A DNA stretch of 64,000 bases from Kordiimonas sp. (GCF_048264555.1 NZ_JBLXCX010000008.1:16414-80413), one strand, 5' to 3'; positions 20,954 through 61,651 are shown, counted from the first letter of the stretch. A program made the numbers and translations. The notes: generated by a model not told the origin, from the letters alone.

Positions 20954-20956
20954 AGT

Positions 20957-26890: not shown

Positions 26891-26894
26891 AAGC

Positions 26895-28172
26895 CTAACT
26901 CCTGTCACATATGGCTGAGGTGAAGGGAATGCAGTCCACCAACTCGCCTTTGGCTACCGCATCCACCCCCTCGGGGATAACAATCCAGGCATCGCTGCGT
27001 CCAAATGGCGCGGTTTGGAAAGACTGTTGCCTTGCGTCGGCGGTCACGTGTAGTTGTCCTGTCTCATTTGTGGTGAGCTTGCCCATGAGGAACGTAGTCT
27101 TAGCTGAAGCGCCGCGGACCTCATTGGTCAGCCGAGCTGCCAGCGACCGTTCATGTGCGACACCAGAAAGCAAGTGAGCGAAAGGCTTCACAAAGGCTCC
27201 GAGTGCCAGCGCAGTCGAGATCGGGTTGCCAGGCAGACCGAAGAAATATTTACCGCCGGGCAAAGTTGCAAAAAGGATCGGTTTTGCCGGTTTTATCCGC
27301 ACTCGGTGCACGTGGATGCGGGCACCAAAATCTTCCAGTACCGGTTTTACAAAATCATACTGCCCTGCCGACACACCACCGGTGGACAAGATGATGTTGG
27401 CATCCCCTTCAAGTGCGGTTTCAAGTGCTGCCGCGAAATCTTGCGGGGTGTCACGCACAGTAGTGGCGTTGGTAAACTCGACGCCCATGTCCTCACACAC
27501 TGATTGCCCATAAAGTGCGGTAGCATTGTAGATATGCCCGGGCGCAAGCGGTTTGGTGAAGTCATCACTGATTTCTTGCCCGGTGCTTATCCAGCATGCC
27601 TTCGGTCTTTCGAATACCATCACCGATGCAGCGCCACTTGCGCACAGCATGGGCAGGTGTGCGGCCTTGATTCGGGTCCCAGCCTCGAGAAGTAAATCGT
27701 TTGTCGCTATGTCCTGCCCCACAAGGCGGACATGCCTGCCTTTCGGGTATGGGCTTGTGAAGGTCAGGTTTTCGTGATCCCAGCTTGCGGCTTCGACCGG
27801 CATCACGGTGTCCGCGCCGTCAGGCATGGGTGCGCCCGTCATGATCTTTGCTGCCCGCCCGGACACAAGATGGGAGAGACCTGCCGTATCCCCCGCAATG
27901 CTGGCGCCCACGACTAGGAGAGACACAGGCGCATCCTCCGACGCCGCAGCTACGTCTGCGGAGGCAAAGGCGAAGCCGTCCATCGCGCTATTCTCAAAAC
28001 TGGGTACCGCGATCGATGCGTGGATATCAGTAGCCAACACTTTCCCTAGGGCTGCGGAGAGAGGCACCAGGTGCGGTGCTAAAACCTCGGCCGTATCACA
28101 GATAGCCGCAAGGCTGTCTGTGTAGGATTGCATAACCAGTGTATCGGAGCGGATGGGGGCTTGCGCATTCAT
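26895..28172 (-). CDS. moeA: Molybdopterin molybdenumtransferase
   Basis: SAMDGFA, IMTGAPMPDGADTV, STGGVSAG and FGLPGNP motifs; ATGA coupling with mobA. Confidence 0.95.
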   Translation of the reverse strand: MNAQAPIRSDTLVMQSYTDSLAAICDTAEVLAPHLVPLSAALGKVLATDIHASIAVPSFENSAMDGFAFASADVAAASEDAPVSLLVVGASIAGDTAGLSHLVSGRAAKIMTGAPMPDGADTVMPVEAASWDHENLTFTSPYPKGRHVRLVGQDIATNDLLLEAGTRIKAAHLPMLCASGAASVMVFERPKACWISTGQEISDDFTKPLAPGHIYNATALYGQSVCEDMGVEFTNATTVRDTPQDFAAALETALEGDANIILSTGGVSAGQYDFVKPVLEDFGARIHVHRVRIKPAKPILFATLPGGKYFFGLPGNPISTALALGAFVKPFAHLLSGVAHERSLAARLTNEVRGASAKTTFLMGKLTTNETGQLHVTADARQQSFQTAPFGRSDAWIVIPEGVDAVAKGELVDCIPFTSAICDRS

Positions 28173-28728: not shown

Positions 28729-29706
28729 TTAGCCTCCGATGGCGGAAAGGTTGCGGGTCATTCCAGCATTACCGAAAGCAAGTTGATGGTTGGCATCCTT
28801 GCTACGCACGGCAGAGATGAGCCTTTCCCGTAGCTCCTCAAATTGTTCGTCAGACTGCAGATAGTCGCGTAGAGGAATGCCAAAGTTTCCAAATAAACAC
28901 AGGTGTAGATTGCCCTGACTCGAGAAGCGCAACCGATTACAACTTTTGCAGAAATCTTTGGAATAGGGCGCGATAAGGCCGATCCTCCCAGCGTGGTTGG
29001 TGTGCATGAATTCATTGGCCGGGCCGCTATCCGCCGCTTTGATGGTTGGGGCCCAGCCGAGTATTTTCAACCGATCAGCGATCACGTCGGTGGAAATATG
29101 GTGGTTACGGAAAAAAGCCGCATGATCGCCAGTTTCCATCAACTCGATGAAGCGGATGGAGACAGGAAGGGTTTTTGTGAGCGTTATAAAGTCCGCCACT
29201 TCGTGATCATTGATATCCTTCATATAAACCACGTTAATCTTCACATCGCTGAATCCCGCCTCTAGCGCCCGATGGATTCCGTGAAGCACTTCATGGCAAC
29301 GGTCGTGGCCAGTGATGCGTCTGAATGCTTCCCGGTTCAGGCTGTCGAGGCTCACGTTGATGGCGTTGAGCCCAAGTCCATGCCAGCGTTCCACGCGTTC
29401 GTGTAGCCTGTAGCCGTTGGTGGTAAGGGCGAGTTTCTTCAGCCCGCCCACCGTGCTGATGTCGGCGACGATATCGTCGAAATCCGGCCGGATGGTTGGT
29501 TCGCCGCCGGTTAGCCTGATTTTCCTAAGTCCAAGTGAAACAAAAGCCCTGGCGGCGCGACGCAATTCGTCCCTACTCAGGGGTGGCGGGGAACCACATT
29601 TCTTGAAACCTTCCGGCAGACAGTAGCTACAGCGAAAATTGCAGGCGTCTGTCACCGACAGGCGCAGATACTGGAATGTGCGATCGAAACCGTCCGTCAG
29701 GTGCAC
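28729..29706 (-). CDS. moaA: GTP 3',8-cyclase
   Basis: YLRLSVTDACNFRCSYC, RLTGGEP and FCKSCNRLR...LCL motifs; AGGAG RBS before GTG 29706. Confidence 0.95.
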   Translation of the reverse strand: MHLTDGFDRTFQYLRLSVTDACNFRCSYCLPEGFKKCGSPPPLSRDELRRAARAFVSLGLRKIRLTGGEPTIRPDFDDIVADISTVGGLKKLALTTNGYRLHERVERWHGLGLNAINVSLDSLNREAFRRITGHDRCHEVLHGIHRALEAGFSDVKINVVYMKDINDHEVADFITLTKTLPVSIRFIELMETGDHAAFFRNHHISTDVIADRLKILGWAPTIKAADSGPANEFMHTNHAGRIGLIAPYSKDFCKSCNRLRFSSQGNLHLCLFGNFGIPLRDYLQSDEQFEELRERLISAVRSKDANHQLAFGNAGMTRNLSAIGG

Positions 29707-29711
29707 AGCAG

Positions 29712-29845
29712 ATCTCCTTTCCAATCACGAGAGGCTTGGCAGTTTCCCTATCAAACCCGGCGGCGTTGTGCCGCGGCCCCGGTGCCATATTCTGAGTAAG
29801 GGGAGCCCGAACGTAGGCACCGAGGCTTCGGAGTTGAGCACTCGA
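29712..29845 (-). ncRNA. Moco (molybdenum cofactor) riboswitch
   Basis: Minus strand reads ACTCCGAAGC...CCTACG...TATGG...GGAAAC...GCCTCTCGTGATTGGAAAGGAG, the conserved elements of the Moco RNA motif, ending on the moaA RBS. Confidence 0.75.
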
Positions 29846-29880: not shown

Positions 29881-29894
29881 TTGATGCAGATCAA
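29881..29894 (-). promoter_or_regulatory. FNR-type box for the moaA operon
   Basis: Perfect TTGAT-GCAG-ATCAA. A -41.5 centring predicts a start near 29846, the riboswitch 5' end. Confidence 0.85.
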
Positions 29895-29896
29895 GT

Positions 29897-31507
29897 TTAG
29901 TTGCGAAATGAGATATCGCTTAGTTCGGGACGAGGGCATTCTTCGGTGCTGGCGCGTACGCACTGGATGGCAAGTTCCACATCACAAAATTCACATAGAG
30001 AGAAAGGATCCGGAGCTATCACATGGTCACTAGAGACTTCGAAGCCATCCTGCTTGAACTTTTGCAGAGTTCTTGAAAAGGTTTCAGGGCGCATGTCCAG
30101 ATAGGAGGCTATGATCGACTTTTCATAAGGAAGATATATTGTGCCGTCGGGCGTGCGCTGGTTGAGTGCAAGCCTAAGCAAAAACCAGCCAACCCGTTCC
30201 TGGGCGGTTTTGAGGCGAGAAAGCTCCAGCTGCTGCACCAAGCGCTGTGAACGCAATGAAACGGTATTAAGCATGCTGACAGCGAGTTGTGGACTGGATT
30301 GTATGCGCTGGCGGATAACGGGTGCGGGGATGGAGAGTAGCAATGCGTTTTCAACAACTTGAGCGCTTACGGGAGTAGGTACATCGAGGAAAACAGCGGC
30401 CTCTAGTAGTGTTTCTCCGCTCCCTAGCATCTGGAGGATTGCTTCCTCGCCGGTCTCCAGTCCGTTGTAGACCTTCACCCAGCCTTGTAAAACGACATAG
30501 AGCCGTGTGGCAGGCTCGTCTCGTAAGAACAATAGCTTGTCTTTTTCATATTCGCGGATCTGAGCGAAGGATAAAAGTTCGTCCAACTCGTGGTCATCGA
30601 TTGCAGCGAGCATGGGTAGCGACTTAAGAAACGGCCGATACTGTGTAATCTGGGCTACTGCTCCTTTTTGCCGCGTCGCAGGCGCGGGCGAATTTGCTGG
30701 TTTGGCGGCAGTTTGCACTAGGCCCTCTACCAGCTTTTGCTCTGCCTCTCTCAGTCCATCGATCATGCGGGACAGGAGCTCAAACCATGCTTCGCCTGTA
30801 TATTTTTCGATTTCACCGAGTGGTGCGCCATCTTCCAGAAGGGTGTTCACTTCGGCTAGGGCATCAAAATCGCCTGCTTCGACATGTTCCTCTACAATCT
30901 GGATCTGGTCAGCAGAGGCAAGCGCTTTAAATGTCTCGAAATAGGCTTTCTGCTCGGCGATGAGAGCGACGAAACGGTCGCAAAATTCCTGATTCCGGAA
31001 TGAATAGGTGTGGAAGCCGCGCGCTCCTAGTGCCCGTTCCATGCCGAGGCGCTCTTTCCATTGCAGGAAGTTGGAATAGGCTGAAACAAGTTTCGAGTCG
31101 TAGCCTTCCTGTCGCTGTGCCAGTTCGATCATTATGTCGATTGTGGGCACGGTGAAGGAGAATGTATAGGTGTTCAGCGCCTGAGTGTAGCGGTAAGCCA
31201 GCAGGCGTATTTTATCTCGCGTTTGGTCGATTTGCTCAAATTTGTTGATTAGGGGCATCAGACGGTCGGACCAAAAACCGTTGGGCAACCCCTTTTTTGC
31301 TTCGTCGCGTGCAAGGAAGGTGCGCAGCTCAGCCACAGCGTCGTTCACCCGGCCATTTTGGGTGTCGTATTGACGCGCAAAGATTTTACCAAGGCTGTCG
31401 AGGAAAAGGCCAGCACAGCCGCGCTCGCGCTGAAGCTGATGAACAGTCTCGCCCAGCTTGTTCAGCAGGCTTCCTGCCAGGTCAGTTTTCTCTGTCACTA
31501 TGCTCAA
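29897..31507 (-). CDS. NIT-domain (nitrate/nitrite sensing) + Crp/Fnr transcriptional regulator fusion
   Basis: N-terminal VHQLQRERG and WKERLGMERA (NIT), cNMP-binding domain (VVLQGWVKVY...GETLLEAAVF), HTH IASYLDMRPETFSRTL, and Cys-rich tail. Confidence 0.85.
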   Translation of the reverse strand: MSIVTEKTDLAGSLLNKLGETVHQLQRERGCAGLFLDSLGKIFARQYDTQNGRVNDAVAELRTFLARDEAKKGLPNGFWSDRLMPLINKFEQIDQTRDKIRLLAYRYTQALNTYTFSFTVPTIDIMIELAQRQEGYDSKLVSAYSNFLQWKERLGMERALGARGFHTYSFRNQEFCDRFVALIAEQKAYFETFKALASADQIQIVEEHVEAGDFDALAEVNTLLEDGAPLGEIEKYTGEAWFELLSRMIDGLREAEQKLVEGLVQTAAKPANSPAPATRQKGAVAQITQYRPFLKSLPMLAAIDDHELDELLSFAQIREYEKDKLLFLRDEPATRLYVVLQGWVKVYNGLETGEEAILQMLGSGETLLEAAVFLDVPTPVSAQVVENALLLSIPAPVIRQRIQSSPQLAVSMLNTVSLRSQRLVQQLELSRLKTAQERVGWFLLRLALNQRTPDGTIYLPYEKSIIASYLDMRPETFSRTLQKFKQDGFEVSSDHVIAPDPFSLCEFCDVELAIQCVRASTEECPRPELSDISFRN

Positions 31508-44044: not shown

Positions 44045-45232
44045 TTGAAAGTGGCAAGACAACAGTATCATGGTCCAGCGTTCCTGAGCCACGGCTTCAG
44101 GCTATTTTTCCTGATGGCAGGTCTAACCGGTTTCCTCTTGGTACCCGGCTGGCTCTATCTGTTTTTCCACGGCGGGACGTTGCCGTCCGGCATGGTTTCG
44201 CTCGATTGGCATATCCATGAGATGATTTTCGGTTATCTGGCCGCAGTCATCGCAGGTTTTCTGCTGACAGCCATTCCCAACTGGACCGGGCGGCTGCCGA
44301 TCTCGGGTGCTCCGCTTGCATGCCTTGTGTTGCTCTGGTTTTTCGGTCGCGTACTCATGCTCGCCCCGGTGCCTGATCTCGTGCGTGCCGGTGGTGATAG
44401 CCTGTTTCTCATTATCATGACTTTTGTCGCTGCGCGGGAAGTGAAGGCGGGCAAGAACTGGCGTAATGCGCCTGTTTGCCTGCTTGTAGGCTTGTTTGCA
44501 CTTGGGAACATTACCTTCCATGTTGAGCGTCTTGGCATGCTTGACAGTGACGTGGCGGTGCGGGCTGCGCTCTCGGTTATCTCCGTCCTGATCGCGCTTA
44601 TAGGTGGGCGTATCGTGCCCAGTTTCACCACAAACTGGCTGATAAAGTCAGGAGCGGCAGCACGACCGGTCCCATTCAACAGTTTCGACAAGGCGGTGCT
44701 GGCGCTGACCGTGCTCGCGCTCGCCTTTTGGAGCATGGCGCCTGAAGGCACGCCCACAGGTGTGATGCTTATCCTCGCAGGTGCCTTGCAGTTTGTGCGC
44801 CTGGCACGCTGGCAAGGTTGGGTGCCTTGGCGCAACGCGCTCGTGCTTGTATTGCATGTGGCGTATCTGTGGCTACCTGTCGGGCTGGTGCTCCTGGGGT
44901 TTGCCGCAGCCTTACCAGAGGTCGTGCCGATGCCCTCTGCCGGTATCCATGCGTTGACAGCGGGGCTGATGGGCATGATGACCGTAGCGGTCATGAGTCG
45001 AGCCACTCTTGGGCATACCGGACGCGAGCTTGCCGCTGGTGCGGTCGGCTGCTGGCTGTATGTGATCTTGTTTACAGCCGCGTTGCTGCGTGTCGTGGCG
45101 TCCCTGATACCAGAATTTTATGCCAGTGGTGTCATGATGTCGGGTGTGCTGTGGTCGCTCGCCTTCCTCATTTTCGTGGTACATTATGGTGCTATGATGC
45201 TGACCCCGCGGTTGGTGATAAAAGGGACATGA
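44045..45232 (+). CDS. nnrS: NnrS family membrane protein
   Basis: GFRLFFL, WHIHEMIFGY..AVIAGFLLTAIPNWTG, GGRIVPSFT and RATLGHTGR motifs. Confidence 0.93.
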   Translation: MKVARQQYHGPAFLSHGFRLFFLMAGLTGFLLVPGWLYLFFHGGTLPSGMVSLDWHIHEMIFGYLAAVIAGFLLTAIPNWTGRLPISGAPLACLVLLWFFGRVLMLAPVPDLVRAGGDSLFLIIMTFVAAREVKAGKNWRNAPVCLLVGLFALGNITFHVERLGMLDSDVAVRAALSVISVLIALIGGRIVPSFTTNWLIKSGAAARPVPFNSFDKAVLALTVLALAFWSMAPEGTPTGVMLILAGALQFVRLARWQGWVPWRNALVLVLHVAYLWLPVGLVLLGFAAALPEVVPMPSAGIHALTAGLMGMMTVAVMSRATLGHTGRELAAGAVGCWLYVILFTAALLRVVASLIPEFYASGVMMSGVLWSLAFLIFVVHYGAMMLTPRLVIKGT

Positions 45233-45245
45233 AAATCACCATCAG

Positions 45246-45259
45246 TTGATCCAGATCAA
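45246..45259 (+). promoter_or_regulatory. FNR-type box
   Basis: Perfect TTGAT-CCAG-ATCAA, ~65 bp before ATG 45325. Confidence 0.85.
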
Positions 45260-45324
45260 TCCTGCTTTTCCTTTGCCTCCTATGGTTTGCGACAATCATT
45301 CAGATACGCAGACGAGGGAGAAGG

Positions 45325-46344
45325 ATGGAGGCTGTACCACAAGGAAGCAGCGTTGCAGTTACTGGCGCCGGGGGCTTTATCGGCAAACACGTGCTGCAGG
45401 CGCTTCTAGAGCGAGGCTACCGGCCGGTTGCCATCCTGCGTCCATCTGCAAGGCTGACACCAGAGCTTGACCGGGTCGTCGTGCGTCATGCCGACGTGAC
45501 CAACCTGCGCGCGCTTGCTGAAGCGACTGAGGGCGCAGATGCTATTATTCATCTTGCGGGCCTTGTGTCCACGAGTGCCCGGGATAGGGGCGACCTTATT
45601 CGCGTGAATGTGGCGGGAGCGAAGAACGCGCTCCAAGTTACCCGGCGGGGCGGTGTGAAACGACTTGTTTTCATGTCTACTACCTCGGCGGTTGGGGCAC
45701 TTCAGGAGAACACGCCCGAACTTGCGCTTAATGAAAATTCGCCCTTCAATATCCATGAGACGGGGGTGGATTATATCACCGCAAAACGGGTGGCGCACAA
45801 GTTAGCACTCAGCGACCGGGCTGCTGGGTTGCCGGTCACGGTCTTGAGCCCGTCCTTTGTGGTTGGCCCTGGCGATAGTTTGCGCAACAGCACACAGCTA
45901 ATCGACCTTGTGGCGCGAGGACAACTGCCTGTTGTGCCCCATGGTGGCATCAACCCGATTGATGTGCGAGATGTGGCGAATGCGGTGGTTGCTACGCTCG
46001 GGCATCATGATCCGGCAGAGCATTATATCCTCGCAGGAAGGCAAAATATCAACCTTTCCAAGTTTGTGGAGCAAGTGGCCAGCGTGACAGGTGCCAGCGC
46101 CCCGCGCTGGCGTTTACCCTTTGCACTGACACTTGCTGCCGCTCGTGCTGCAGAAACCATCTTTCCTCACACTGGCGTGACGGCGTCGGCCGTTCGTCTC
46201 TCACGCTATTACTGGTATTTCGACAACTGCCGGGCTTGTCGTGATCTGGGACTAGCGCCCCGACCGTTTGGTCAAAGCATAGTCGACACGCTGAATTGGC
46301 TGGTTTCTGGCCGTCATGCCGGTTCATCTAGCCGCGCCGCGTAG
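45325..46344 (+). CDS. Extended SDR / NAD-dependent epimerase-dehydratase (HpnA/DFR-like)
   Basis: VTGAGGFIG, IHLAG, STTSAVG, YxxxK (YITAK), VVGPGD and DVRDVA motifs. Confidence 0.88.
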   Translation: MEAVPQGSSVAVTGAGGFIGKHVLQALLERGYRPVAILRPSARLTPELDRVVVRHADVTNLRALAEATEGADAIIHLAGLVSTSARDRGDLIRVNVAGAKNALQVTRRGGVKRLVFMSTTSAVGALQENTPELALNENSPFNIHETGVDYITAKRVAHKLALSDRAAGLPVTVLSPSFVVGPGDSLRNSTQLIDLVARGQLPVVPHGGINPIDVRDVANAVVATLGHHDPAEHYILAGRQNINLSKFVEQVASVTGASAPRWRLPFALTLAAARAAETIFPHTGVTASAVRLSRYYWYFDNCRACRDLGLAPRPFGQSIVDTLNWLVSGRHAGSSSRAA

Positions 46345-46351
46345 GAGAGAG

Positions 46352-47773
46352 ATGATGAAGATATTGCTCGTAAATCCGCCATGCGGCACTCGCACCATAG
46401 GGCTTAAGAATATTGCCAAAATCGAACCGCTGAACCTTGAGTTGCTCGGCGCTGTGGTCGGCACGCGGTACGAGGTGCGTCTTGTGGACATGGAGGTCGC
46501 GCCGAGTGATCTTATGCCCACCTTGCGGGAGTTTATCCCTGACGTTGTCGGCGTCACCTCGGAGGTGGTGCACGTAGACAGCGCTAAGCGGGTGTTGGCG
46601 CTTTGCCGTCTCGCGGCGCCACACTGTGTCACGGTAGTGGGTGGGCATCACCCCACCGTCTGGCCGCAGGATTTCCTTGATCCTGTTATTGACCTCGTGG
46701 TGCGTGGCGAGGGCACGGAAAGCTTTGCTGAGATATGTGATACGGTTGCAGAAGGTGGGCGCGATTTCAGGCATATTGCCGGTCTGATGATCCGTCAGGG
46801 TGAACAACTTGTGCCCACGCGCCCGCGTGGGCTGCCCCGCACGCTTGACCATCAGCCGATGCCGGACCGTAAGCTTACGAGCCGCTACAGGAATAAATAT
46901 TATTACCTGTGGGAGCGCCGGGTGGCTGCCGTACGCAGTTCGGTGGGCTGCAGTTTCCCCTGTGTCTTCTGTTCGTGCCGGGTCTATTCCCACGGTGGTT
47001 TTATCCCGCGTTCGCCCGAACTACTGCTTGAAGAGATATTCGGGCTTGAAGAAGAATTTATCTATCTCTGCGACGATCATGCCTTCCATGACCCGGCGCG
47101 GATGTGGGAGCTTGGCGAAAAGCTGTTGAAGAGCGGCGTGAACAAACGCTATTTCACCTATGCGCGGGTCGACTCTATCGTCGAGAATCGTGATTTGTTT
47201 GAACTGTGGGCGAAGGTGGGCCTGCAACTTGTAATGTCAGGCCTTGAATCCCTTGACTATGAGGCGTTGAAGCGCACCGGTAAAAGGGTCGAAAAGGGAC
47301 GGGATGAGGAAGCGCTTGCCATCCTTGCCGATCTTGGTATCGGCATGAGCGCAGGGTTCCTTGTTGAACCGCATTTCGAAGCCGCCGATTTCCAGGCCAT
47401 TGATGACTATGTGCGCGACCACCCAGCCATAATACTGACCGAGTTCACGCCGCTGACGCCGCTCCCAGGCACTCCGCTATACCGCAAGGTGCAAAAGGAC
47501 ATCGTCTCGCCCGACAGGCAGCTCTATGACCTGCAACATTTCCTACTACCGACTGAAACGCCCCAAAAAAGACTCTATGCGCTTATGCGTAAAGCCTATT
47601 CAAGGGTAATTCGTCGCGCAGTTATGCGCATGGGACTGTGGAGGCCGAAAAACTGGTCGTGGCATTACATCCGCATGTTCCGGGGCCTGATACGCAACTA
47701 CAAGGCGCTTGGAGAGGCGCATACCCATTGCCCGGCACCTGAGATCACGTCTGAACACAGGGATGCCGCATGA
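46352..47773 (+). CDS. Cobalamin-binding radical SAM protein (class B, HpnR-like)
   Basis: N-terminal B12 domain (EPLNLELL, VVGGHHPT, VVRGEGT), CxxxCxxC (CSFPCVFC), TPLPGTPLY and YDLQHFLLPT. Confidence 0.88.
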   Translation: MMKILLVNPPCGTRTIGLKNIAKIEPLNLELLGAVVGTRYEVRLVDMEVAPSDLMPTLREFIPDVVGVTSEVVHVDSAKRVLALCRLAAPHCVTVVGGHHPTVWPQDFLDPVIDLVVRGEGTESFAEICDTVAEGGRDFRHIAGLMIRQGEQLVPTRPRGLPRTLDHQPMPDRKLTSRYRNKYYYLWERRVAAVRSSVGCSFPCVFCSCRVYSHGGFIPRSPELLLEEIFGLEEEFIYLCDDHAFHDPARMWELGEKLLKSGVNKRYFTYARVDSIVENRDLFELWAKVGLQLVMSGLESLDYEALKRTGKRVEKGRDEEALAILADLGIGMSAGFLVEPHFEAADFQAIDDYVRDHPAIILTEFTPLTPLPGTPLYRKVQKDIVSPDRQLYDLQHFLLPTETPQKRLYALMRKAYSRVIRRAVMRMGLWRPKNWSWHYIRMFRGLIRNYKALGEAHTHCPAPEITSEHRDAA

Positions 47774-48564
47774 CAAAGACGATTGGTAACCAAGAGCCTG
47801 ACATCACCTATCTCGGCTGGTCCGGTTTCCGAATAACTGGGCCAGAGGACAGCGATATCTATATCGATCCACCGAAGGGGACCGTCTTCAAGGATGTGCC
47901 TGCGGTGATTTTCATCACCCATGGCCATCCAGAGCATTTGGGTGGCGTGTTGGACCTGCTGCGGCGCGAACGCGCGAGTAGCACGACCATTGTTGCTTCC
48001 AGCGTGATGTGCCGCTATCTACGGCGTCAGAATGTCGACCCCGGTGTCCGATTCGAACAGGTCACGGCCGGCAGTACTTTTGCCGACGAGACAGGCGTGT
48101 GGGCTGAGGTGTTCGCTTGGCGTCATATGCCACTGCTGCCACCGGGTATCATACCTGCCTGCCGCCATATCTGGCGTCTCCTGCGCGGTTGGCGCAAGAC
48201 AACCAGTATCATTCGCATGATGCTAATGGGGCCGTGCCGTGCAGGCGAGATGTTGGGTTTTGTACTGACAGTCGGCGACGGTATGCCAGTGATTGCCTTT
48301 GGTGAGGGTCTGCACCGCCATACCAGGCCCGGCGAACTGGGCGGCGTTATTGGAGAGCGTATGGAAGCCGTTCTTCTAGTTGCAGTGGAGCCCGAAGATG
48401 TTGGCACACTACCGAGCCTTCTTGATGGAAGTGCGGTACGTTCTATCGCGCTCTATGAGCCGCACGGCCGCTGGCGTGACGACTTTGGCATGCCGCACGC
48501 CGACCTGCAGGCGCTTGCGAAGGAACTTAGGCAGGGGGGCAAGCAGGTTTGTTGCGTACCTTGA
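47770..48564 (+). CDS. Metallo-beta-lactamase-fold hydrolase (UlaG-like)
   Basis: ITYLGWSGFRI, IYIDP and ITHGHPEHLGG (variant HxHxDH); ATGA-coupled to the radical SAM gene. Confidence 0.8.
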   Translation: MTKTIGNQEPDITYLGWSGFRITGPEDSDIYIDPPKGTVFKDVPAVIFITHGHPEHLGGVLDLLRRERASSTTIVASSVMCRYLRRQNVDPGVRFEQVTAGSTFADETGVWAEVFAWRHMPLLPPGIIPACRHIWRLLRGWRKTTSIIRMMLMGPCRAGEMLGFVLTVGDGMPVIAFGEGLHRHTRPGELGGVIGERMEAVLLVAVEPEDVGTLPSLLDGSAVRSIALYEPHGRWRDDFGMPHADLQALAKELRQGGKQVCCVP

Positions 48565-48572
48565 TAGCTCGG

Positions 48573-49484
48573 TTATTCTATGGCACCACGCTGAGTGTGG
48601 CCGGGCTGACCGTGGAAAAAACCATTCGAGAACTGGACGTCGGGCAATAGTTCGTCGAGGAGAGCACAGGCTTTTTCCCCTGAAATCCATTCCGCTGCTC
48701 GGGCGCGAAAAATGTTGGCTACCTGAGCCATGTTGCCAGTGTGTGGGGACAAGCGGAAATCCCTGATACCCATTTGCATCAGCACCGGCAGTTCGTCCAG
48801 CAGGCTGATATATTTGTAGGACAGTGTCTGTAGCCCATTGATGGCGAGAAAGGCCTGACCGTCAAGTGTATCGAGTGTTAGCCCGTCCGGGTCGTTTTCG
48901 CAGACATATCGGCAGCCAGACTTCGTCAGGTGGTTCGCGCGTGCATGGAAGCAGCGCGCGGAGATGGCAAGTGGCGCGCGGCCAAAAACCTGCACTTCAA
49001 GATCGCCTTTGGCAGTGGTCGCCAGTGCCGCCAGCGTCGACTTTGGTAGCTCGGCATTGAGTGAGGTGCGGGTCGCTCCACCATGTTCGAAATGAGCCAG
49101 CGTTTCAGGGTTGTAGATGTTGATGGAGGGACCAAGTGCGTGAGGGCGGTCTTTGAGCAGGCTAATAGTCGACATGTCGTTGGCCTCGATCAGATATTCT
49201 TCGGCGAGCGTCAGGGTTTCCTCCACGCTCGCCATGTCTTTGCCGTCCATCACCAGTTGAAGGCCCGAGAGAATCACCTGTTTGCCCGCCGATCTCAGCC
49301 GGTGGATGATTTCTTCATAATGCACTAGGTGGAAAGGTCGGCGTTTTGCGCAGACAACTTCGCCGAGATAGACGATGTCGATATCAGCCTCATCGGCAAT
49401 ACGAAAATAAAAATCCCTGAATGTATCGACCGGCCAGTTGAAAAGCAGTGGCCCGAGGGACAGTCTGAAAGTTTCTACAGCCAT
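48573..49484 (-). CDS. ubiV: O2-independent ubiquinone biosynthesis protein UbiV (U32 family)
   Basis: LSLGPLLFNW, YLGEVVCAKR, LAISARCFHAR and C.YVC motifs. Confidence 0.92.
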   Translation of the reverse strand: MAVETFRLSLGPLLFNWPVDTFRDFYFRIADEADIDIVYLGEVVCAKRRPFHLVHYEEIIHRLRSAGKQVILSGLQLVMDGKDMASVEETLTLAEEYLIEANDMSTISLLKDRPHALGPSINIYNPETLAHFEHGGATRTSLNAELPKSTLAALATTAKGDLEVQVFGRAPLAISARCFHARANHLTKSGCRYVCENDPDGLTLDTLDGQAFLAINGLQTLSYKYISLLDELPVLMQMGIRDFRLSPHTGNMAQVANIFRARAAEWISGEKACALLDELLPDVQFSNGFFHGQPGHTQRGAIE

Positions 49485-50458
49485 TTTTTCCCGTAAGCTC
49501 CCGTAGTGGTGATGTTGCCCTCCGAGATGGTGGCAAGGTTGGCGCTCGGCGCACTTGTGCCGATGGTGTCGATGGCGCTGCGAAAGCCCGACACCACCTG
49601 CCGCACATAGGCCTTGCTACGTTGTCTTCCTTCGATCTTGAGGGCGCGGACACCCGCCTTCACAAGGCTTGGCAGGATAGAACGAATATCAAGGCTCGTG
49701 GGCTCTTCGAAGATGTAGCCGTGTGCACCCGATACCTGGAACCGTCCCTTGCAAAGAGTGGGGTAACCTGCCTGTTCGTTGTCATTGAAGCGGTTGATGG
49801 TAAAGCCGCCAAGTCGGCTGGTCAGACCGTCCTTTTCGCGTACATAGTCTACATGGCTCGCGGGCGAACAAACGCCATTCCGATTGGGAGACTGTCCGGT
49901 CGCGTAGGAAGAAAGTGTGCAACGTCCCTCAGCCATCGGGCACATGCCGCCAAAGGCGAAAACTTCCGTCTCGACATTGATCTGTTGATTGAGTTTGGCG
50001 ATCTCTGGTACCGTCAGGACGCGCGGCAGCACCACCCGGCGCACGTCGAATGTTTCTGAGTAATAATTAATTGCCGCAGCGTTCGAGGCTGATGCCTGCA
50101 CAGAAAGGTGTAGCCGTAGGTCCGGGTATTGCTCCCGTGCGTAGGCCAGAAGACCGATATCTGCGAGGATGATGGCGTCCACACCAAGTTCGCTGGCGTA
50201 TGCTATGGCGCGATGCCAAGGGGTTGGGTCGATCGCGTCCGCATAGGTGTTTACCGCCAGTAGCACCTTCCGTCCCGCCTTGTGTGCATATGCTATAGCC
50301 CCTTCAAGCTCCGCGACCGAAAAGTTCAACCCTGGGAAGTTGCGGGCATTGGTCTCATCCCGGAAACCGAGGTAGACAGCATCTGCCCCGGCTTCGACTG
50401 CGGCGCGAAGCGCAGCCGGGGTGCCAGCGGGACACACAAGTTCAAGTGCTGTGGTCAT
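49475..50458 (-). CDS. ubiU: O2-independent ubiquinone biosynthesis protein UbiU (U32 family)
   Basis: ELVCPAG, TNARNFPGLNF, CPMAEGRCTLSSY, GVCSP, PTLCKGRF and KIEGRQRS motifs. Confidence 0.95.
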   Translation of the reverse strand: MTTALELVCPAGTPAALRAAVEAGADAVYLGFRDETNARNFPGLNFSVAELEGAIAYAHKAGRKVLLAVNTYADAIDPTPWHRAIAYASELGVDAIILADIGLLAYAREQYPDLRLHLSVQASASNAAAINYYSETFDVRRVVLPRVLTVPEIAKLNQQINVETEVFAFGGMCPMAEGRCTLSSYATGQSPNRNGVCSPASHVDYVREKDGLTSRLGGFTINRFNDNEQAGYPTLCKGRFQVSGAHGYIFEEPTSLDIRSILPSLVKAGVRALKIEGRQRSKAYVRQVVSGFRSAIDTIGTSAPSANLATISEGNITTTGAYGKKWL

Positions 50459-51177
50459 AAAGGGGCTTTCTCTGTATGCGTAGCGTTGGTGACGGTCGAT
50501 TTCTTATGGCGGGTCTGAGCTATTCTGACCTGCCTGCGCAGAGAGGCAAGGTCGTCGCTCAACTGGCGAACCTTCGTGTTCAATGCCGCCACTTGCATCA
50601 TCGGGCGGGCCTGAAACCAGTTCTGTAGCTGTTGGCTATGACATAGCAAGGTACTATGTACCGAACTGCCGAGCTGTATCGTGCGCCGCACTATCGGTTC
50701 TGCGGGCCCTAGGAAAGAAAGTAGCTCGGCACGGAAGTCGATTTCCACGCTATCTATGGCGTTCCTGAGCATTAGCAGCGCTTCCGTATCCCCCGTAACC
50801 TGGATGTTGCGTGCAAAAAACAGCGCGTCGCCGTCGCTCTTTCCCTCAAGGAGCGCGATGAGCGCACTAATCGGTGCCTCAATCGATACGTGGGCACGTG
50901 CTAGGTGGGAGGCTGGCGCGGTTTTTACCCTGAAGCCTCCGGGATTGGCGATTACCATGAAGGCGATGCCGACATCCGTCGCGGCAATTCTGTATAGGGT
51001 ACCTGGGGTGAGATGGAGGCGGGAAAAGGCGTCTGGATGGCTAGAGATGATGCGGTCAACCACAGCCTGTAGCGCAAGGTCTAGCGGTGTGGCAGGTAGG
51101 GCGGCCAGCACCCGCCCTGCAAACAGGCCGATATTTCTTGGCATCTCGCCTAGTATCGGGCTCTGAGATTTCCTCAT
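50455..51177 (-). CDS. ubiT: SCP2-domain accessory factor UbiT, with coiled-coil extension
   Basis: LIALLEGKSDGDALFFARNIQVTGDTEALLMLRNAID; first gene of the ubiT-U-V operon. Confidence 0.85.
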   Translation of the reverse strand: MRKSQSPILGEMPRNIGLFAGRVLAALPATPLDLALQAVVDRIISSHPDAFSRLHLTPGTLYRIAATDVGIAFMVIANPGGFRVKTAPASHLARAHVSIEAPISALIALLEGKSDGDALFFARNIQVTGDTEALLMLRNAIDSVEIDFRAELLSFLGPAEPIVRRTIQLGSSVHSTLLCHSQQLQNWFQARPMMQVAALNTKVRQLSDDLASLRRQVRIAQTRHKKSTVTNATHTEKAPL

Positions 51178-51232: not shown

Positions 51233-51246
51233 TTGATACAAGTCAA
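51233..51246 (-). promoter_or_regulatory. FNR-type box for ubiTUV
   Basis: TTGAC-TTGT-ATCAA on the minus strand, ~60 bp before ubiT. Confidence 0.75.
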
Positions 51247-56018: not shown

Positions 56019-59000
56019 TTATTTCCCCATTCGGCGCTGGAACTCCGCCCTTGCTTTGGGTTCACAGTCTTTTCGCTGCTCGTCATTCGCAGCCCAACTG
56101 CAATAGCGGCGCACAAAATCATCCAGATTGTTGGCCTGATGCAGGTTGCTAGCAACAGCCACTCCCTGCTTGCCCATGGCCAGACATTCTGCGGCTTGCA
56201 CCTGAGCACCCTGCGCGCGAAGGTCGTTACACATCTGCGCGAAGATATCGATCTGCTTGTCATTGAGCGTCACTCGTGACGCTGCCTTGTCAAGCCGCTC
56301 CTGATCAATGTCGTAGGACCGGTCAAAACCGCTGCTGCCGGTCTGCTGCCTGGACTGACCATACTGGTTGTACTGCTGGCGTTTGGCGTTGCCTTCGTCA
56401 AGGCTGTCAACCCAGTTCACCACGTTGCCGCTCCCGCGTGAGCGTTGCTGTTCGGCTTGCTGGGCCAGTTGCTGGTTGCTGATACCATAGGCGCCGATGC
56501 CGGACTGGTTCATTAGTTGCGCAGCTGTCGGGCGGTTCTTATATCGCTGGTTCATGTCGCTCACGAGATTGTCGAACTTCTGGTTGTTGGCGGCGATTTG
56601 CGCGTCAACCCGTGCATCATAGGCCTGCATCGACTGCATGGTGCTGGCGATGCCGCCCGCCAGAGCCTGCATGCTGGCCTGGAACTGGGCGCGCTCCTGT
56701 TCCTTGCGGCGCTCTTCCTCGGCGCGCGCCTGTGCGGCTTCAGCGAACTGTTGCTGCATCATACCTTCATTCTGGGCCTTCTCGTATTCCGCCATCTGCT
56801 TGAGCCGCTGGCGGATAGCATATTCCTCTTCTGGGCTGCGGTCGTTCTGAACCACCCGGATAGGCGCATCGGTCCCACCAGCATCAGCGTCGTAGGCCCA
56901 TGGATCATCCGCAGGAACTGGTTTTTCCCTTTCATCCGGCTCATCCACTGCTTTCTCGGCTTCCGCCAGCAGCGCCCCGCCCGGGCGGAAAGCAATATCC
57001 TGAAACGGCGCGCGGCCTGCGTCCATATTGGACCGGACTTGCGCATAGACATCGCCGAATTTCGCCCCCTCCGGCAACTGAACCTTTCCTTGCTGCACAT
57101 TGTCGATCAACACGCGCCTTATAGCGGCATCCCGCTCTTGCGCACCAGATGCAGCGTCCTGTCCGGCAAAGAAGGTGGTACGCATTTGCGCCTCAACCAT
57201 GTCATTGATGGTGCGCCCATCCTTCGATACCGGCAATTTTCCCAGAAGCTCGCCAGTCATCCAGCCCATATCGAAAGCACCTGAAAGCTGGCCATATCCG
57301 GGTATCAGCTTCTCCATCACCTTGTCCTTGGCGTGATTATACAGCTCTTCCCCAACCATATCTTTGGTGTTTTCCCATGCCTTCGCATAGTTACCGTCAT
57401 AAAGTTCCTTGCCGATCTTGTCGGTAACCTCACGGGCTTTTTGCAGCTTGTCCCAATAGTCCATGCCCTTCATGCCCGTACCAAACACCTTGTCCGCGCC
57501 GCGGTTCAGGCGCGTGCGAGCGGTCGTCCCCCCGTCCGTGCCAGAGAAGTCATGATCGCTGCTCATGGAGGCAGGGCCAACTGCCACATTGTCGTTCGCC
57601 GCCGACGGCTTCATGAAGTCGGGATCGAGCCCTTCTTTGCCCGGCACCTGCTCGTTCGCCAGTACCGCGCTATCGCTGACGGCAACGCCAAGCGCCGCGT
57701 TGGCGTCAATCGTTGCCTGATGCCGCATGAAGCTGTCCTGCACCTGCCGGGTCTTCTCCGCCGCGTCAGCTTCAAGTGCTTCCCTTCTGGCAGACAGTTC
57801 CTGTATCCGCGCCTCCCGGTCGACCGAAAGTTCGTCACCATCACCGGCTGCGCGGATAGCATCTATCTCGCTGGCCAGAGCGCGGCTGTCCGCCTTCGCT
57901 TTTTCGGCCTCCACGATCATAGCTGCGCGCTCCTGCACTGCCTCCGTGTCCATTTGCCGGACAATGGTATCCGTCACCTCATTTTGCACATTAATAAGAG
58001 CCTTGAGCTTCTCATCGCTGTTGATGCCAAGGCTCGACGGATCATGTCGGCGCTTCATGCGCCGCATCATGGCTTCATACTCCGCCCCCGACATGTCTTT
58101 GGTTTCCTCGTGCCTGTCGAGCGCTTGCCGGACCGGGTGGGCCGGATCATCCATATCAGGCGGCAATTTACCTTTCCATTTGTCGAGCAGCTTGCGGTTG
58201 GACTTCACGTAGCGCTGCCAGGCATCCGCGTTGGCGCCTTCGACCCCCGCGAGTGTCGGGTTCTCCAGAGCCCGCATCTCAGCCGCCTTATTGAGCTGGT
58301 CCTGTCCAAACACGGCATTCTTGCCTGGCTGTCCATCTGCCATACTCTGGCTGGTGAAGGTTTCCTTGTTGGTCGCCATAGCCCGCAGCTTGTCCTTGTA
58401 AAGCTGTGACCCCGGCGGCGCTTTCTCAAGCTCCATATCGCGGTTGAGCGTCATGTTGAGCGCTTCGATATCGACAGTGCTGCCCCCGTTCTTGTCAGCG
58501 GTTTCAAAACCTAGGGTGCGAGCGATCTCAGCAACCCTGTCCGCTTCCTGACTGGTCGCCGAATAGTCATGGTCTGATGCCCAGCCCGAGTTTTCACGGC
58601 TGTTTGCATCTGTACCGTCTGACGATGAGATACCGTCTTTGTTCAAGGGATCGGCTGCTGCCTTGACAATTTCTTCCACCAAGGGCCTTCGCTGCTTTTC
58701 CACAAGTTTTCTGCTTTCAAAGATATAGCTGACTTCAGCCCGGTAAAGCTGCTCCGCCCTGACATGGTCTGGCAAGCTCTTGTCTGCGCGAAGGTCCGCT
58801 TTACGCTGGTCGCGCACTTGTTTCAGTTCCTCGTTTTTACTGGCAGCTTCCCTATATTCCTTGTACCTGTCCCAAAGCCTTTCCTGCACCTCTGGCGGCA
58901 GTGAGGCAAATACCTCGCTTGTTATTGTTGTTGACGGCTCCGCCTGTTGGGCGGCGACCGAAAGCGGTAGCGCCGCCGCCCACAGGGTTAAGGCGAACAG

Positions 59001-59027
59001 CGATAAAAGTCGGGTAAGTTTTTTCAT
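56019..59027 (-). CDS. Large secreted hypothetical protein (1002 aa, coiled-coil rich)
   Basis: Sec signal peptide ending VAA; long uninterrupted ORF with RBS; no family recognised. Confidence 0.8.
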   Translation of the reverse strand: MKKLTRLLSLFALTLWAAALPLSVAAQQAEPSTTITSEVFASLPPEVQERLWDRYKEYREAASKNEELKQVRDQRKADLRADKSLPDHVRAEQLYRAEVSYIFESRKLVEKQRRPLVEEIVKAAADPLNKDGISSSDGTDANSRENSGWASDHDYSATSQEADRVAEIARTLGFETADKNGGSTVDIEALNMTLNRDMELEKAPPGSQLYKDKLRAMATNKETFTSQSMADGQPGKNAVFGQDQLNKAAEMRALENPTLAGVEGANADAWQRYVKSNRKLLDKWKGKLPPDMDDPAHPVRQALDRHEETKDMSGAEYEAMMRRMKRRHDPSSLGINSDEKLKALINVQNEVTDTIVRQMDTEAVQERAAMIVEAEKAKADSRALASEIDAIRAAGDGDELSVDREARIQELSARREALEADAAEKTRQVQDSFMRHQATIDANAALGVAVSDSAVLANEQVPGKEGLDPDFMKPSAANDNVAVGPASMSSDHDFSGTDGGTTARTRLNRGADKVFGTGMKGMDYWDKLQKAREVTDKIGKELYDGNYAKAWENTKDMVGEELYNHAKDKVMEKLIPGYGQLSGAFDMGWMTGELLGKLPVSKDGRTINDMVEAQMRTTFFAGQDAASGAQERDAAIRRVLIDNVQQGKVQLPEGAKFGDVYAQVRSNMDAGRAPFQDIAFRPGGALLAEAEKAVDEPDEREKPVPADDPWAYDADAGGTDAPIRVVQNDRSPEEEYAIRQRLKQMAEYEKAQNEGMMQQQFAEAAQARAEEERRKEQERAQFQASMQALAGGIASTMQSMQAYDARVDAQIAANNQKFDNLVSDMNQRYKNRPTAAQLMNQSGIGAYGISNQQLAQQAEQQRSRGSGNVVNWVDSLDEGNAKRQQYNQYGQSRQQTGSSGFDRSYDIDQERLDKAASRVTLNDKQIDIFAQMCNDLRAQGAQVQAAECLAMGKQGVAVASNLHQANNLDDFVRRYCSWAANDEQRKDCEPKARAEFQRRMGK

Positions 59028-59940: not shown

Positions 59941-60525
59941 CTATTTGCTCCTGAACGGAATGCGGTACTCCAGAAACGCGAAACGCTTGAGATTCTGTAG
60001 ACGCACAAAAAGCTCCGCCTTCTTGTCCAGCTTACCTTCCCGCACAAACACAACGCCCTGTACTGTCGCGCCGGGCTCAACAATGATGTTCTGGAGTGAC
60101 TTGGTGGCGAGCGCGGACCGCAGAATTGCCATACGCATATGGTCCTTGTTGCCACCCCCACCGGGGTCAATATCTCTTACCACCTCGTTGAGATCATCTT
60201 TTGCGAGCGGCTTTTTTTCGCCAGCATTAAAGACTTCAAAATCACTCAGATGCAGGCGGAATGGACTGTTGTTGGTGATTGCTACATCGAGTGTGGCATA
60301 GTCACCAATCTTGTCACCGAACAAACGGCGTTGTTCCTTTTTACCGAAAACCTCAACGCCCACCTCAATGCCTCGTTGATCTTCCTTGAAGGTGTATGAG
60401 AAAGCCTCCCGAAACCGGAGCTGTTGCGTCTCTGCGCTGAGGAAAGGATCATCGTCAGCGTGAAGTGTACCACAGAGCACAGCGGTTGAGAGGGCTGCGC
60501 CAATGATATGTCTTGCTGCAGTCAT
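59941..60525 (-). CDS. Secreted hypothetical protein, possibly Ig-like beta sandwich
   Basis: Signal peptide ending LHA; LDVAITNNS and VEPGATVQGVVF; ATGA-coupled to the upstream gene. Confidence 0.75.
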   Translation of the reverse strand: MTAARHIIGAALSTAVLCGTLHADDDPFLSAETQQLRFREAFSYTFKEDQRGIEVGVEVFGKKEQRRLFGDKIGDYATLDVAITNNSPFRLHLSDFEVFNAGEKKPLAKDDLNEVVRDIDPGGGGNKDHMRMAILRSALATKSLQNIIVEPGATVQGVVFVREGKLDKKAELFVRLQNLKRFAFLEYRIPFRSK

Positions 60526-61238
60526 CGTGCTATCTCCAGTCCTGTCGCCATGATGAGCTGTTTCATGTCGGTAAAGCCTGCCTTAAGTGCTTCAATAGCA
60601 TTGCCGGTATATTCATAGGGTGCTACCTCGCCAGAGCTATTGAGGCTACCGTGTTCGCGTCGGATTTGTTCCGCCCACAAAATGATGCCTGAACGAGGCT
60701 CGATTAGCTGACCGACGAAGCTGAAATGTACGTTCAGTTGGAAGTCTGGGCTCTTCTTGTCGTTCATCATTTTCTTGCGCAGCAGGTTAAAATGCACCAG
60801 ATCAGCCGTCATCAGGAGGTCAACTCCATTGTCTGCCGCGATCTTCGCTAGCGCTTCGGGTGAACTGATGTCACCTGACGGCACAGAAAGGCGCCGCACA
60901 TTGCGGAACAGGTTGCTGGCTTTCAGTTCATAGTAGAGTGTGTCGCCAATTGCGTCGGGCAGGGTTTCGATGAAAAAGGCGTCACTGCCACCATAGAATT
61001 TCATCACGCGTTTGTCGGTCATCGGCAACACGCCGAGGGTGACATTGTACTTGGGTTGATTGTAGGCTGCCTCGGGACGATAGGAAATGCTGAGGCGGTT
61101 TTTCTCCTTCGGAGGCTTGATCTTTTCTACATCATCGGCAAAAGCCGTATTTGAAAAGCGACCACCATCCATGGACCAGGCGCCAAGCGCGCACATAGTA
61201 ACACCAACGGCGATTGCCGTTCGTAACAAAAGTCTCAT
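60522..61238 (-). CDS. Secreted protein, CsgG/TolB-N/LpoB-like alpha/beta fold (tentative)
   Basis: Signal peptide; LGVLPMTD...ELKASNLF...GVDLLMTADL...GQLIEPRSGIILW pattern. Confidence 0.6.
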   Translation of the reverse strand: MRLLLRTAIAVGVTMCALGAWSMDGGRFSNTAFADDVEKIKPPKEKNRLSISYRPEAAYNQPKYNVTLGVLPMTDKRVMKFYGGSDAFFIETLPDAIGDTLYYELKASNLFRNVRRLSVPSGDISSPEALAKIAADNGVDLLMTADLVHFNLLRKKMMNDKKSPDFQLNVHFSFVGQLIEPRSGIILWAEQIRREHGSLNSSGEVAPYEYTGNAIEALKAGFTDMKQLIMATGLEIAR

Positions 61239-61651
61239 GCGTACATCCCCCATACTTGATGCGACTTATATCGGAAAGTATGAAGGCTACCGCAGTAAAC
61301 TGCAAGGTTTCTAGCTACGGAAGATGGTTTATTTCTCGGGGGATTTGATCCAGTTAATAGGTCTATCTCCCGTTATGTGGTGACCGGCATCAGCCCTAAC
61401 GCGCGGAAATGAACTCAGCCCTACGACCAAGTGCATATGGGCTAATTACGAAGCCCACTTTGGATAGAAAGCGACCCGATAAAAGGGACCCCGTACCGAA
61501 AGGCGGCACCGTTGGTATATGAATACTGCCTCTTGATCACATTTGTTTCGTTTCTTGCGCCGGTGCTGCTTATGCTCTGATAACCGGACTGAGTCATGAG
61601 CCGGGCTTTGAAATCGTGAAATAAGCGGTCACGTATAAGCGCTCATCGTAA

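Follow-up and report, generated by a model that had tools for sequence, protein, structure and literature searches.

Which reaction is carried out by three coupled genes that lie beside the genes for anaerobic ubiquinone synthesis in Kordiimonas sp.? The genes, together with their promoter element, occupy positions 45246-48564 of a 64,000-nucleotide stretch (GCF_048264555.1, NZ_JBLXCX010000008.1:16414-80413); this whole stretch is referred to as the window, and positions are given in its numbering. They encode an extended short-chain dehydrogenase/reductase (SDR; 45325-46344, + strand, 339 aa), a B12-domain radical S-adenosylmethionine (SAM) enzyme (46355-47773, or from 46352, + strand, ~472 aa) and a metallo-beta-lactamase (MBL)-fold protein (47770-48564, + strand, 264 aa). 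The coordinates of the SDR and MBL genes are those of the called open reading frames (ORFs). A first-pass annotation of the window had compared the radical SAM enzyme with the hopanoid C-3 methylase HpnR and the SDR with HpnA, and had proposed an undescribed O2-independent pathway that methylates or otherwise tailors a membrane lipid or a quinone-like molecule. We are confident that the radical SAM enzyme represents a distinct family, anaerobically regulated, which is not HpnR. As for its function, we tentatively favour radical chemistry that needs no O2 and modifies a C-H bond, probably by methylation; the substrate would be lipophilic and linked to anaerobic ubiquinone metabolism. Our statements on function rest on homology, gene neighbourhood and motif statistics.

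Sequence comparison places the radical SAM enzyme in the HpnR/BchE clade as a sister family of HpnR. Its best NCBIfam match is the model TIGR04367 for HpnR, a class B, B12-dependent radical SAM methyltransferase, and the motifs EPLxLEL, DDxAF, TPxPGT and YDxQHxxLPT, from which the likeness had been recognized, are all present and are common to bona fide HpnRs. However, the score is 211 bits against a cut-off of 650. Members of the family score 209-226 bits on this model, whereas true HpnRs (from Paraburkholderia, Acetobacter, Nitrospira, Microcoleus, Nitrospinaceae and Verrucomicrobia) score 872-920 bits. Identity between the enzyme and true HpnRs is 27-30%, as against at least 63% within HpnR and at least 48% within the present family. 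A scan of one genome per species revealed a sharp gap, with 20 loci at 52-74% identity followed by sequences of the HpnR type at 33% or less. Thus, with its low score, low identity and separate cluster, the enzyme does not turn out to be a true HpnR, a case that the annotation had allowed for. The two families share the domain order, CxxxCxxC and the motifs EPLGLE, DDxxF, TPxPGT and [YF]DxQHxxxPT, and they probably act on hydrophobic substrates by similar chemistry. The present family has CSFPC and GGHHPT against CPWDC and GGHS[VA]S in HpnR, and the C-terminus of the family is shorter than that of HpnR. Furthermore, the family is always paired with the MBL protein and HpnR never is; neither an MBL gene nor an SDR gene of the trio type was found next to HpnR-type genes (0/60 loci). 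Genes of anaerobic respiration, not of hopanoid synthesis, form the context of the family. A third clade of the HpnR/BchE group was observed in a proteobacterium from Lac Pavin sediment (L025, 5194-6585, + strand; related loci are given L numbers). It scores 283 bits on the HpnR model, is ~34% identical to both HpnR and the present family, and has no MBL or SDR neighbour.

The domains of the enzyme are clear. Pfam recognizes the B12-binding domain PF02310 (62 bits, cut-off 32) and Radical_SAM PF04055 (32 bits, cut-off 29.5), and the CxxxCxxC motif (C199/C203/C206) is invariant in the family. The AF2 model (mean predicted local distance difference test score, pLDDT, 87.6) shows the class B radical SAM fold, with an N-terminal B12-binding Rossmann domain followed by a TIM barrel that carries CxxxCxxC; cobalamin binding and methyl transfer are putative. 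Amphipathic basic helices are located at the C-terminus. Foldseek returned AprD4 as the top match (template modelling score, TM, 0.69), and AprD4, TsrM, OxsB, TokK, CysS and MgmA all fall at TM 0.63-0.70. Because AprD4, TsrM, OxsB, TokK and CysS score about equally, the fold search cannot separate a methylase from a non-methylase. The AprD4 family model gave 18 bits (cut-off 500). BchE, the anaerobic Mg-protoporphyrin IX monomethyl ester cyclase, which belongs to the same clade and replaces an oxygenase without using O2, was tried as an identity for the enzyme and ruled out: the score on TIGR02026 is 140 bits against a cut-off of 481, the enzyme is nearer to HpnR, and no bch gene was found in the window or in any related locus, so that the context of photosynthesis genes is lacking. 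In phototrophs bchE is controlled by FnrL, which may be compared with the FNR box of the trio.

The most constant companion of the radical SAM enzyme is the MBL protein. Each of the 22 loci first examined has the MBL gene immediately 3' of the radical SAM gene. The total came to 41 non-redundant loci, and 40 of them show this order; the remaining locus, L005, ends at a contig edge inside the MBL gene. The two proteins are fused in several loci (e.g., P0069, 757 aa). The conserved core is therefore the radical SAM-MBL pair, a self-contained, anaerobically wired module, and with the SDR usually present as well, the conservation on which the annotation had made its proposal depend is found. The MBL protein carries the motif HxHxEH (H51, H53, E55, H56) together with H119, H182 and H232, all of which are invariant. 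Its Pfam match is marginal (27.8 against a cut-off of 27), but the AF2 model (pLDDT 90.6) shows the alpha-beta/beta-alpha sandwich with the metal motif and distal histidine ligands, and Foldseek assigns the fold with probability 1.0; the protein is a putative hydrolase. Foldseek and PDB profile searches returned generic or uncharacterized hydrolases (3kl7, UlaG, ElaC-like, YhfI, UPF0173, PqqB) at TM ~0.6. These matches are uninformative about the substrate. A two-helix insertion specific to the family (residues ~125-155) holds a conserved cationic amphipathic helix with a hydrophobic moment of 0.7-0.8. This helix and the C-terminal helices of the radical SAM enzyme hint at a lipid interface. 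The MBL family is small, with 35 representatives at E<=1e-30 and 67 at E<=1e-10 among 1.84 billion representative proteins, and no homologue was found in a plasmid collection.

The SDR is the usual third partner, NAD(P)-dependent, interchangeable between types and absent in some loci. It scores 118 bits on Pfam Epimerase and 75 bits on 3Beta_HSD, and it is of the aldehyde-reductase/flavonoid-reductase/3beta-HSD type, with the dinucleotide-binding motif GAGGFIG and the catalytic motif YxxxK. HpnA (TIGR03466), with which it had been compared, is its top NCBIfam match. An identity as HpnA was nevertheless ruled out, because the score of 180 bits is below the cut-off of 368 and a classical adh_short protein replaces the SDR in some loci. 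Across the family, 26 locus groups have the extended type 5' of the pair, and six have a classical adh_short gene, upstream or downstream. The top PDB sequence match is 3wj7, an uncharacterized oxidoreductase, followed by cinnamoyl-CoA reductases, DFR and NSDHL. In an NCBI Kordiimonas sp. assembly, the SDR has a counterpart with 100% identity and the MBL protein one with 97%.

The three genes are translationally coupled and, as had been described from the sequence, converge on ubiV-ubiU-ubiT. A GGAGAG ribosome-binding site that serves the radical SAM gene overlaps the stop codon of the SDR gene, and the radical SAM stop and the MBL start overlap in ATGA. The radical SAM ORF was called at 46316-47773. 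Because of the position of the GGAGAG site and because homologues are ~472 aa long and begin with MKILL, the ATG at 46352 or 46355 is most likely the true start, and the called start at 46316 would be too early. The perfect FNR/Dnr-type box that had been noticed before the trio, TTGATCCAGATCAA, is located at 45246-45259, its centre 72 bp 5' of the SDR ATG. With the consensus TTGAT-N4-ATCAA, three perfect sites occur in the window where ~0.06 are expected from base odds, and the other two lie in the nar/moa regulatory region; sites with at most one mismatch number five against 1.9 expected, a count that 5 of 100 shuffled sequences reach. Perfect boxes were found at the operon promoter in seven loci, namely the window and L001, L016, L019, L085, L101 and L104, and the chance expectation across these promoter windows is ~0.01. 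The trio thus carries the predicted site of the FNR/Dnr regulon at promoter distance. By inspection, a possible -10 hexamer, TATGGT (45281-45286, + strand), would put the centre of the box near -41.5, a spacing that may correspond to a class II FNR promoter. A consensus scan of the trio promoter detected no sigma-70 -35/-10 pair, which is expected, since such a promoter depends on an activator. No cobalamin or SAM riboswitch was detected upstream of the trio in the window or in seven related loci, which argues against B12-sensing control. The trio is one operon, predicted to be activated by FNR/Dnr. In a single low-depth metatranscriptome, fragments of nnrS, the radical SAM gene, ubiV, ubiU and ubiT were found, and one contig crosses the radical SAM/MBL junction; these contigs are weak evidence for expression and co-transcription.

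Downstream of the trio, on the opposite strand, lie ubiV (48573-49484), ubiU (49475-50458) and ubiT (50455-51177), which encodes the SCP2 lipid-binding accessory factor. All three are above their NCBIfam equivalog cut-offs: quinone_UbiV with 335 bits (cut-off 275), quinone_UbiU with 507 bits (cut-off 440) and SCP2_dom_UbiT with 79 bits (cut-off 47). Ahead of ubiT, at a distance of 56 bp, stands an FNR-like box with one mismatch, TTGATACAAGTCAA (51233-51246). A gap of 8 nt separates the MBL stop codon from that of ubiV (48562-48575), and no terminator was detected between them. Transcripts of the two FNR-controlled operons should collide or overlap.

This neighbourhood is not peculiar to Kordiimonas. 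Canonical ubiTUV genes, above cut-offs where tested, adjoin the trio in six independent lineages and in four arrangements. In the window and in L090, the trio converges on ubiVUT and is only adjacent to it. In L003 and in L122, which is identical to L119, the order is ubiT-ubiU-ubiV-SDR-radical SAM-MBL(-hemN), divergent from ubiD-ubiX; in L008 it is SDR-radical SAM-MBL-ubiT-ubiU; and in L124 it is ubiT-chorismate mutase-SDR-radical SAM-MBL, divergent from ubiU-ubiV-ubiD. Thus, the trio shares an operon with ubi genes in L003, L122, L124 and L008, and in L124 and L008 this operon includes the gene for UbiT, the SCP2 lipid carrier. The chorismate mutase of L124 is a stand-alone CM_2 protein encoded between ubiT and the SDR gene (7446-7901, + strand), and it fits the published role of prephenate as the oxygen donor of UbiUV (PMC10990095). 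In gammaproteobacterial metagenome-assembled genomes (MAGs; L003 4345-6521, L122 3242-5382, L124 3315-4910), ubiD either diverges from the ubiTUV operon or is joined to it, with ubiX also in L003 and L122. This indicates that the UbiX/UbiD decarboxylase travels with the anaerobic module, and the placement fits a 2026 preprint according to which the alternative, UbiB-dependent decarboxylation requires O2.

In three further lineages the trio adjoins a divergent U32 protein and a conserved protein of ~320 aa, which may together be an uncharacterized U32 hydroxylase pair. The pairs lie at 10770-12729 in L096, 6728-8747 (- strand) in L016 and 8064-9963 in L093. On the UbiU model the divergent U32 protein reaches 61-74 bits, and its TrhP scores are similar; both are far under the cut-offs. 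Its partner (306-342 aa) has no Pfam or NCBIfam match and carries the motifs LGNEFCERL and CRKEC; when it was compared (c191) with UbiV as a possible divergent form, the hhalign probability was only 5.7%. Other neighbours recur by lineage: true hemN in four, class II ribonucleotide reductase (RNR) in three, nsrR-ytfE-(qnorB) in five and nnrS in four, nnrS standing beside the trio in L003, L018 and L090. The genes nar, nap, nos or nirK are also found. Of the 30 loci flanked on each side by at least 4 kb, 17 have at least one anaerobic neighbour, and a pooled Pfam scan of the 113 remaining neighbour ORFs detected no other recurrent partner family. We infer from these neighbours that the module belongs to the set of oxygen-free replacement genes of the cell, like UbiUV, HemN and NrdJ. 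The analogy with UbiUV on which the annotation had drawn is therefore stronger than could be seen from the window, since elsewhere the trio lies inside ubiTUV operons and beside hemN and class II RNR. The likeness to UbiTUV consists in the shared operon or immediate neighbourhood in six lineages, the FNR-type control and the logic of replacing O2-dependent steps; on the other hand, the protein families are unrelated, and the trio, which model organisms that run this pathway lack and which E. coli and P. aeruginosa do not need for it, is far less common than ubiTUV.

Our preferred reading, a radical methylation whose hydrophobic substrate is linked to anaerobic ubiquinone metabolism, draws on the likeness to HpnR, on the amphipathic helices and on the co-transcription with UbiT. 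In such a pathway the radical SAM enzyme would reductively cleave SAM and draw a hydrogen from an unactivated carbon atom in an endogenous, hydrophobic molecule, and a methyl group would then be passed from methylcobalamin, by analogy with HpnR, the nearest characterized relative. The SDR could adjust a neighbouring alcohol or carbonyl before or after the methyl step, and the MBL protein might remove a handle (a thioester or a phosphodiester) or free the product. The pathway served would be anaerobic ubiquinone metabolism, the substrate being an intermediate or derivative of ubiquinone carried by UbiT, or a ring precursor, and not a hopanoid. Radical SAM methylases flanked by a dehydrogenase or reductase are known from fosfomycin synthesis (Fom3 with FomC/FomD), and a similar arrangement is found in anaerobic haem breakdown (ChuW with ChuY); in the case of Fom3, a hydrolase also takes off a handle after methylation. 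However, these systems are built from other protein families (FomD is not an MBL protein and ChuW is of class C) in other contexts, and no homology is detectable beyond the superfamily. For the chemistry, methylation is moderately probable by analogy with HpnR. That the substrate belongs to ubiquinone metabolism, which is read from the gene neighbourhood, is possible but somewhat short of probable. It is rather doubtful, though worth considering, that anaerobic ubiquinone metabolism has in the module a missing part that is peculiar to certain lineages and acts beside the prephenate-dependent U32 hydroxylases. The module would then contribute either an unseen alkylated or altered quinone for nitrate and nitric oxide (NO) respiration in bacteria without menaquinone or rhodoquinone, or, where UbiC is lacking, a way to the ubiquinone head group without O2. 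Of the proposal made by the annotation, the likeness to HpnR and HpnA, the FNR-type control and the lack of a description in the literature searched are borne out, while methylation and a lipid or quinone substrate are not established.

Several observations weigh against this favoured reading. E. coli and P. aeruginosa finish O2-independent ubiquinone synthesis with UbiTUV alone (PMC6747719, PMC10990095), and therefore the pathway cannot always require the trio. As no ring position of ubiquinone is free, the target of a methylation is not obvious. The core pair is also carried by Planctomycetota, Bdellovibrionota and Polyangiaceae, which we take to use menaquinone only. The best fold match, AprD4, is a non-methylating, cobalamin-free dehydratase with a TM equal to those of the methylases. 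About 40% of the loci with full flanks have no anaerobic neighbour, and the adjacency to ubiTUV may be mere shared FNR regulation within anaerobic islands. Some loci have an SDR of another type or none at all, which speaks against a strictly ubiquinone-specific role. Since E. coli needs no trio, no methylation site is obvious, phyla that we take to lack ubiquinone carry the core and the fold search does not discriminate, we hold the ubiquinone-linked methylation loosely.

If the adjacency to ubiTUV only reflects a shared regulon, the module could modify a membrane lipid other than a quinone, for example by O2-independent methyl-branching of acyl or isoprenoid chains, which would tune the membrane when O2-dependent desaturases or hydroxylases cannot act. 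This is unlikely in our estimate, yet several observations agree with it: the nearest characterized relative methylates an unactivated lipid carbon, amphipathic helices are found in both core proteins, the core occurs in non-ubiquinone phyla, and acyl-CoA synthetase and NMO/FabK-like genes are close to some loci. However, no lipid-synthesis gene recurs beside the module, and the roles of the SDR and the MBL protein stay unexplained. Moreover, the embedding of the trio in an operon between ubiV and hemN, and after ubiT, exceeds what loose co-regulation would produce.

The ring precursor of ubiquinone offers another substrate. An aryl-acyl thioester could undergo O2-independent benzylic oxidation to give 4-hydroxybenzoate in bacteria without UbiC, through a BchE-like hydroxylation, oxidation to the ketone by the SDR and thioester cleavage by the MBL protein, which would be the anoxic counterpart of the O2-dependent 4-hydroxymandelate route. 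The chorismate mutase in the ubiT-chorismate mutase-SDR-radical SAM-MBL operon of L124 agrees with such a route, but it is explained equally well as prephenate supply for UbiUV (PMC10990095). An aryl-pyruvate-type 2-oxoacid:ferredoxin oxidoreductase gene lies directly 5' in L009 and L011, a gene of the benzoate-CoA-ligase family abuts the SDR gene in L018, and 4HBT thioesterases are encoded nearby in L085 and L086; each of these supporting neighbours is limited to one or two lineages. Cinnamoyl-CoA reductases are the best PDB relatives of the SDR after 3wj7, and UbiC and XanB2 are missing in two Kordiimonas genomes, as in the other Alphaproteobacteria among the entries considered from Table S1 of PMC11707229. 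On the other side, the radical SAM enzyme is nearer to the methylase HpnR than to BchE, ordinary chemistry of the beta-oxidation type needs no radical enzyme, and many ubiTUV-bearing alphaproteobacteria are not among the homologues. We consider this route quite unlikely.

Also rather improbable is a BchE-like action on a tetrapyrrole that would replace an O2-dependent step of haem or corrinoid metabolism, such as anaerobic protoporphyrinogen oxidation, a CobG- or BluB-type step, or a haem breakdown analogous to that by ChuW/ChuY. BchE is the second-best family match of the enzyme, true hemN adjoins the module in its four lineages, one of them a Planctomycetota MAG, and the class II RNR found in three is B12-dependent. 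ChuW/ChuY provides a precedent for a radical SAM enzyme that works with a Rossmann-fold reductase, and universal tetrapyrroles would suit the wide taxonomic spread. However, the match to BchE (140 bits) is below that to HpnR (211 bits), the cobalamin riboswitch is missing from the seven related loci and the window, and no haem-uptake, cob or other hem genes recur; hemN and nrdJ are themselves simply members of the FNR regulon. In a Planctomycetota MAG (L020), a second, longer B12-domain radical SAM gene (760-2670, + strand, 636 aa) lies 5' of the pair, and true hemN is convergent downstream.

A fourth alternative draws on the fold match. AprD4, a radical SAM diol dehydratase, shares the B12-type domain but holds no cobalamin and works with an SDR ketoreductase, AprD3. 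The trio could, by the same two-enzyme logic, deoxygenate a diol-bearing polar metabolite with a B12-like domain that lacks cobalamin. AprD4 is the top Foldseek match, and the SDR partner is conserved yet interchangeable. This is very unlikely, because there is no significant match to the sequence family (18 bits of a required 500), TokK, CysS and TsrM have fold scores that cannot be told apart from that of AprD4, the Pfam B12-binding match is well over its cut-off, no sugar or aminoglycoside genes form the context, and no MBL protein belongs to the AprD4/AprD3 system. We also rejected the idea that the trio replaces UbiD/UbiX, because ubiD and ubiX stand beside the trio (both in L003 and L122, ubiD in L124) and both are present in two Kordiimonas genomes. 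Finally, that the genes are genuine hpnR and hpnA, which would serve a hopanoid-producing organism in making 3-methylhopanoids, is extremely improbable: the two models are the top NCBIfam matches and the motifs are common to HpnR, but the scores are only about one third (211/650) and one half (180/368) of the equivalog cut-offs, true HpnRs at 870-920 bits are distant in identity and lack the partners in all 60 loci, NCBI uses generic names only, and a Pfam scan of the ORFs of the 64 kb window found no squalene-hopene cyclase (shc) or hpn gene, as the annotation had already noted.

Pfam, NCBIfam and riboswitch scans of the window showed that the trio is located in a nitrate-respiration island. 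Before the trio, this contains ytfE and qnorB; moeA, mobA and moaA with a molybdenum cofactor (Moco) riboswitch; a NIT-Crp regulator; two major facilitator superfamily transporters; and narGHJI. It continues with a beta-carbonic anhydrase, a porin-like protein, nnrS, the trio, ubiV, ubiU, ubiT and napCBA. The nnrS gene (44045-45232, + strand, Pfam NnrS 348 bits) stands immediately 5' of the FNR box of the trio. The Moco riboswitch (RF01055, 72 bits, 29698-29845, - strand) lies 5' of the moaA-mobA-moeA operon, which also holds a gene for a 615-aa pyridoxal phosphate-dependent decarboxylase-like protein (25061-26908). The regulator (536 aa, 29897-31507, - strand) combines a NIT nitrate/nitrite-sensing domain, a cNMP-binding domain and a Crp/FNR-type helix-turn-helix, and it is flanked by perfect FNR boxes at 29881 and 31663. 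Five window ORFs of 1002, 194, 243, 242 and 152 aa, all on the - strand (56019-59027, 59941-61253, 15486-16214 and 20889-21347), have no Pfam match at 1e-5. The 152-aa ORF occupies the position that nsrR has in related loci, divergent from ytfE-norB. In the Kordiimonas lipolytica type (L001/L002/L116), the array nsrR-ytfE-qnorB-SDR-radical SAM-MBL-sensor kinase-nirC-narL is bounded by a resolvase with ParE/Phd genes and by a Tn3-family transposase, which suggests a mobile NO-respiration island.

The module is carried mostly by marine, low-oxygen or groundwater MAGs, including Kordiimonadaceae, Emcibacter, other Alphaproteobacteria, Gammaproteobacteria and Burkholderiales, and more distant radical SAM/MBL pairs are found in Planctomycetota, Bdellovibrionota and Polyangiaceae. 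Full-text literature searches found no published account of the family, and a 2026 review of B12 radical SAM enzymes omits it. We regard it as a new class B radical SAM family whose obligate MBL partner and context are likewise new. NCBI gives its members generic names only, and JGI labels some of them 'hopanoid C-3 methylase'. Recognition of the family guards against such misannotation, which matters because hpnR and 3-methylhopanoids serve as biomarkers. Cultured Kordiimonas strains carry the module (WP_068147815.1, WP_286830615.1/WP_286830616.1 and WP_417462580.1/WP_417462581.1), and therefore its function is directly testable.

Facultative anaerobes swap O2-dependent biosynthetic enzymes for radical or Fe-S enzymes, as in the case of HemN, class II/III RNR, BchE and UbiUV, and each such find has revealed new chemistry. 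With its FNR control, its placement with ubiTUV and hemN, its membership of the HpnR/BchE clade and its near-exclusive MBL family, the module bears the genomic signature of another replacement of this kind. Its substrate would give the radical SAM/MBL pairing a first function, and it would reveal either a quinone or lipid new to science in bacteria of low-oxygen seawater and groundwater habitats, or a further step that proceeds without O2.

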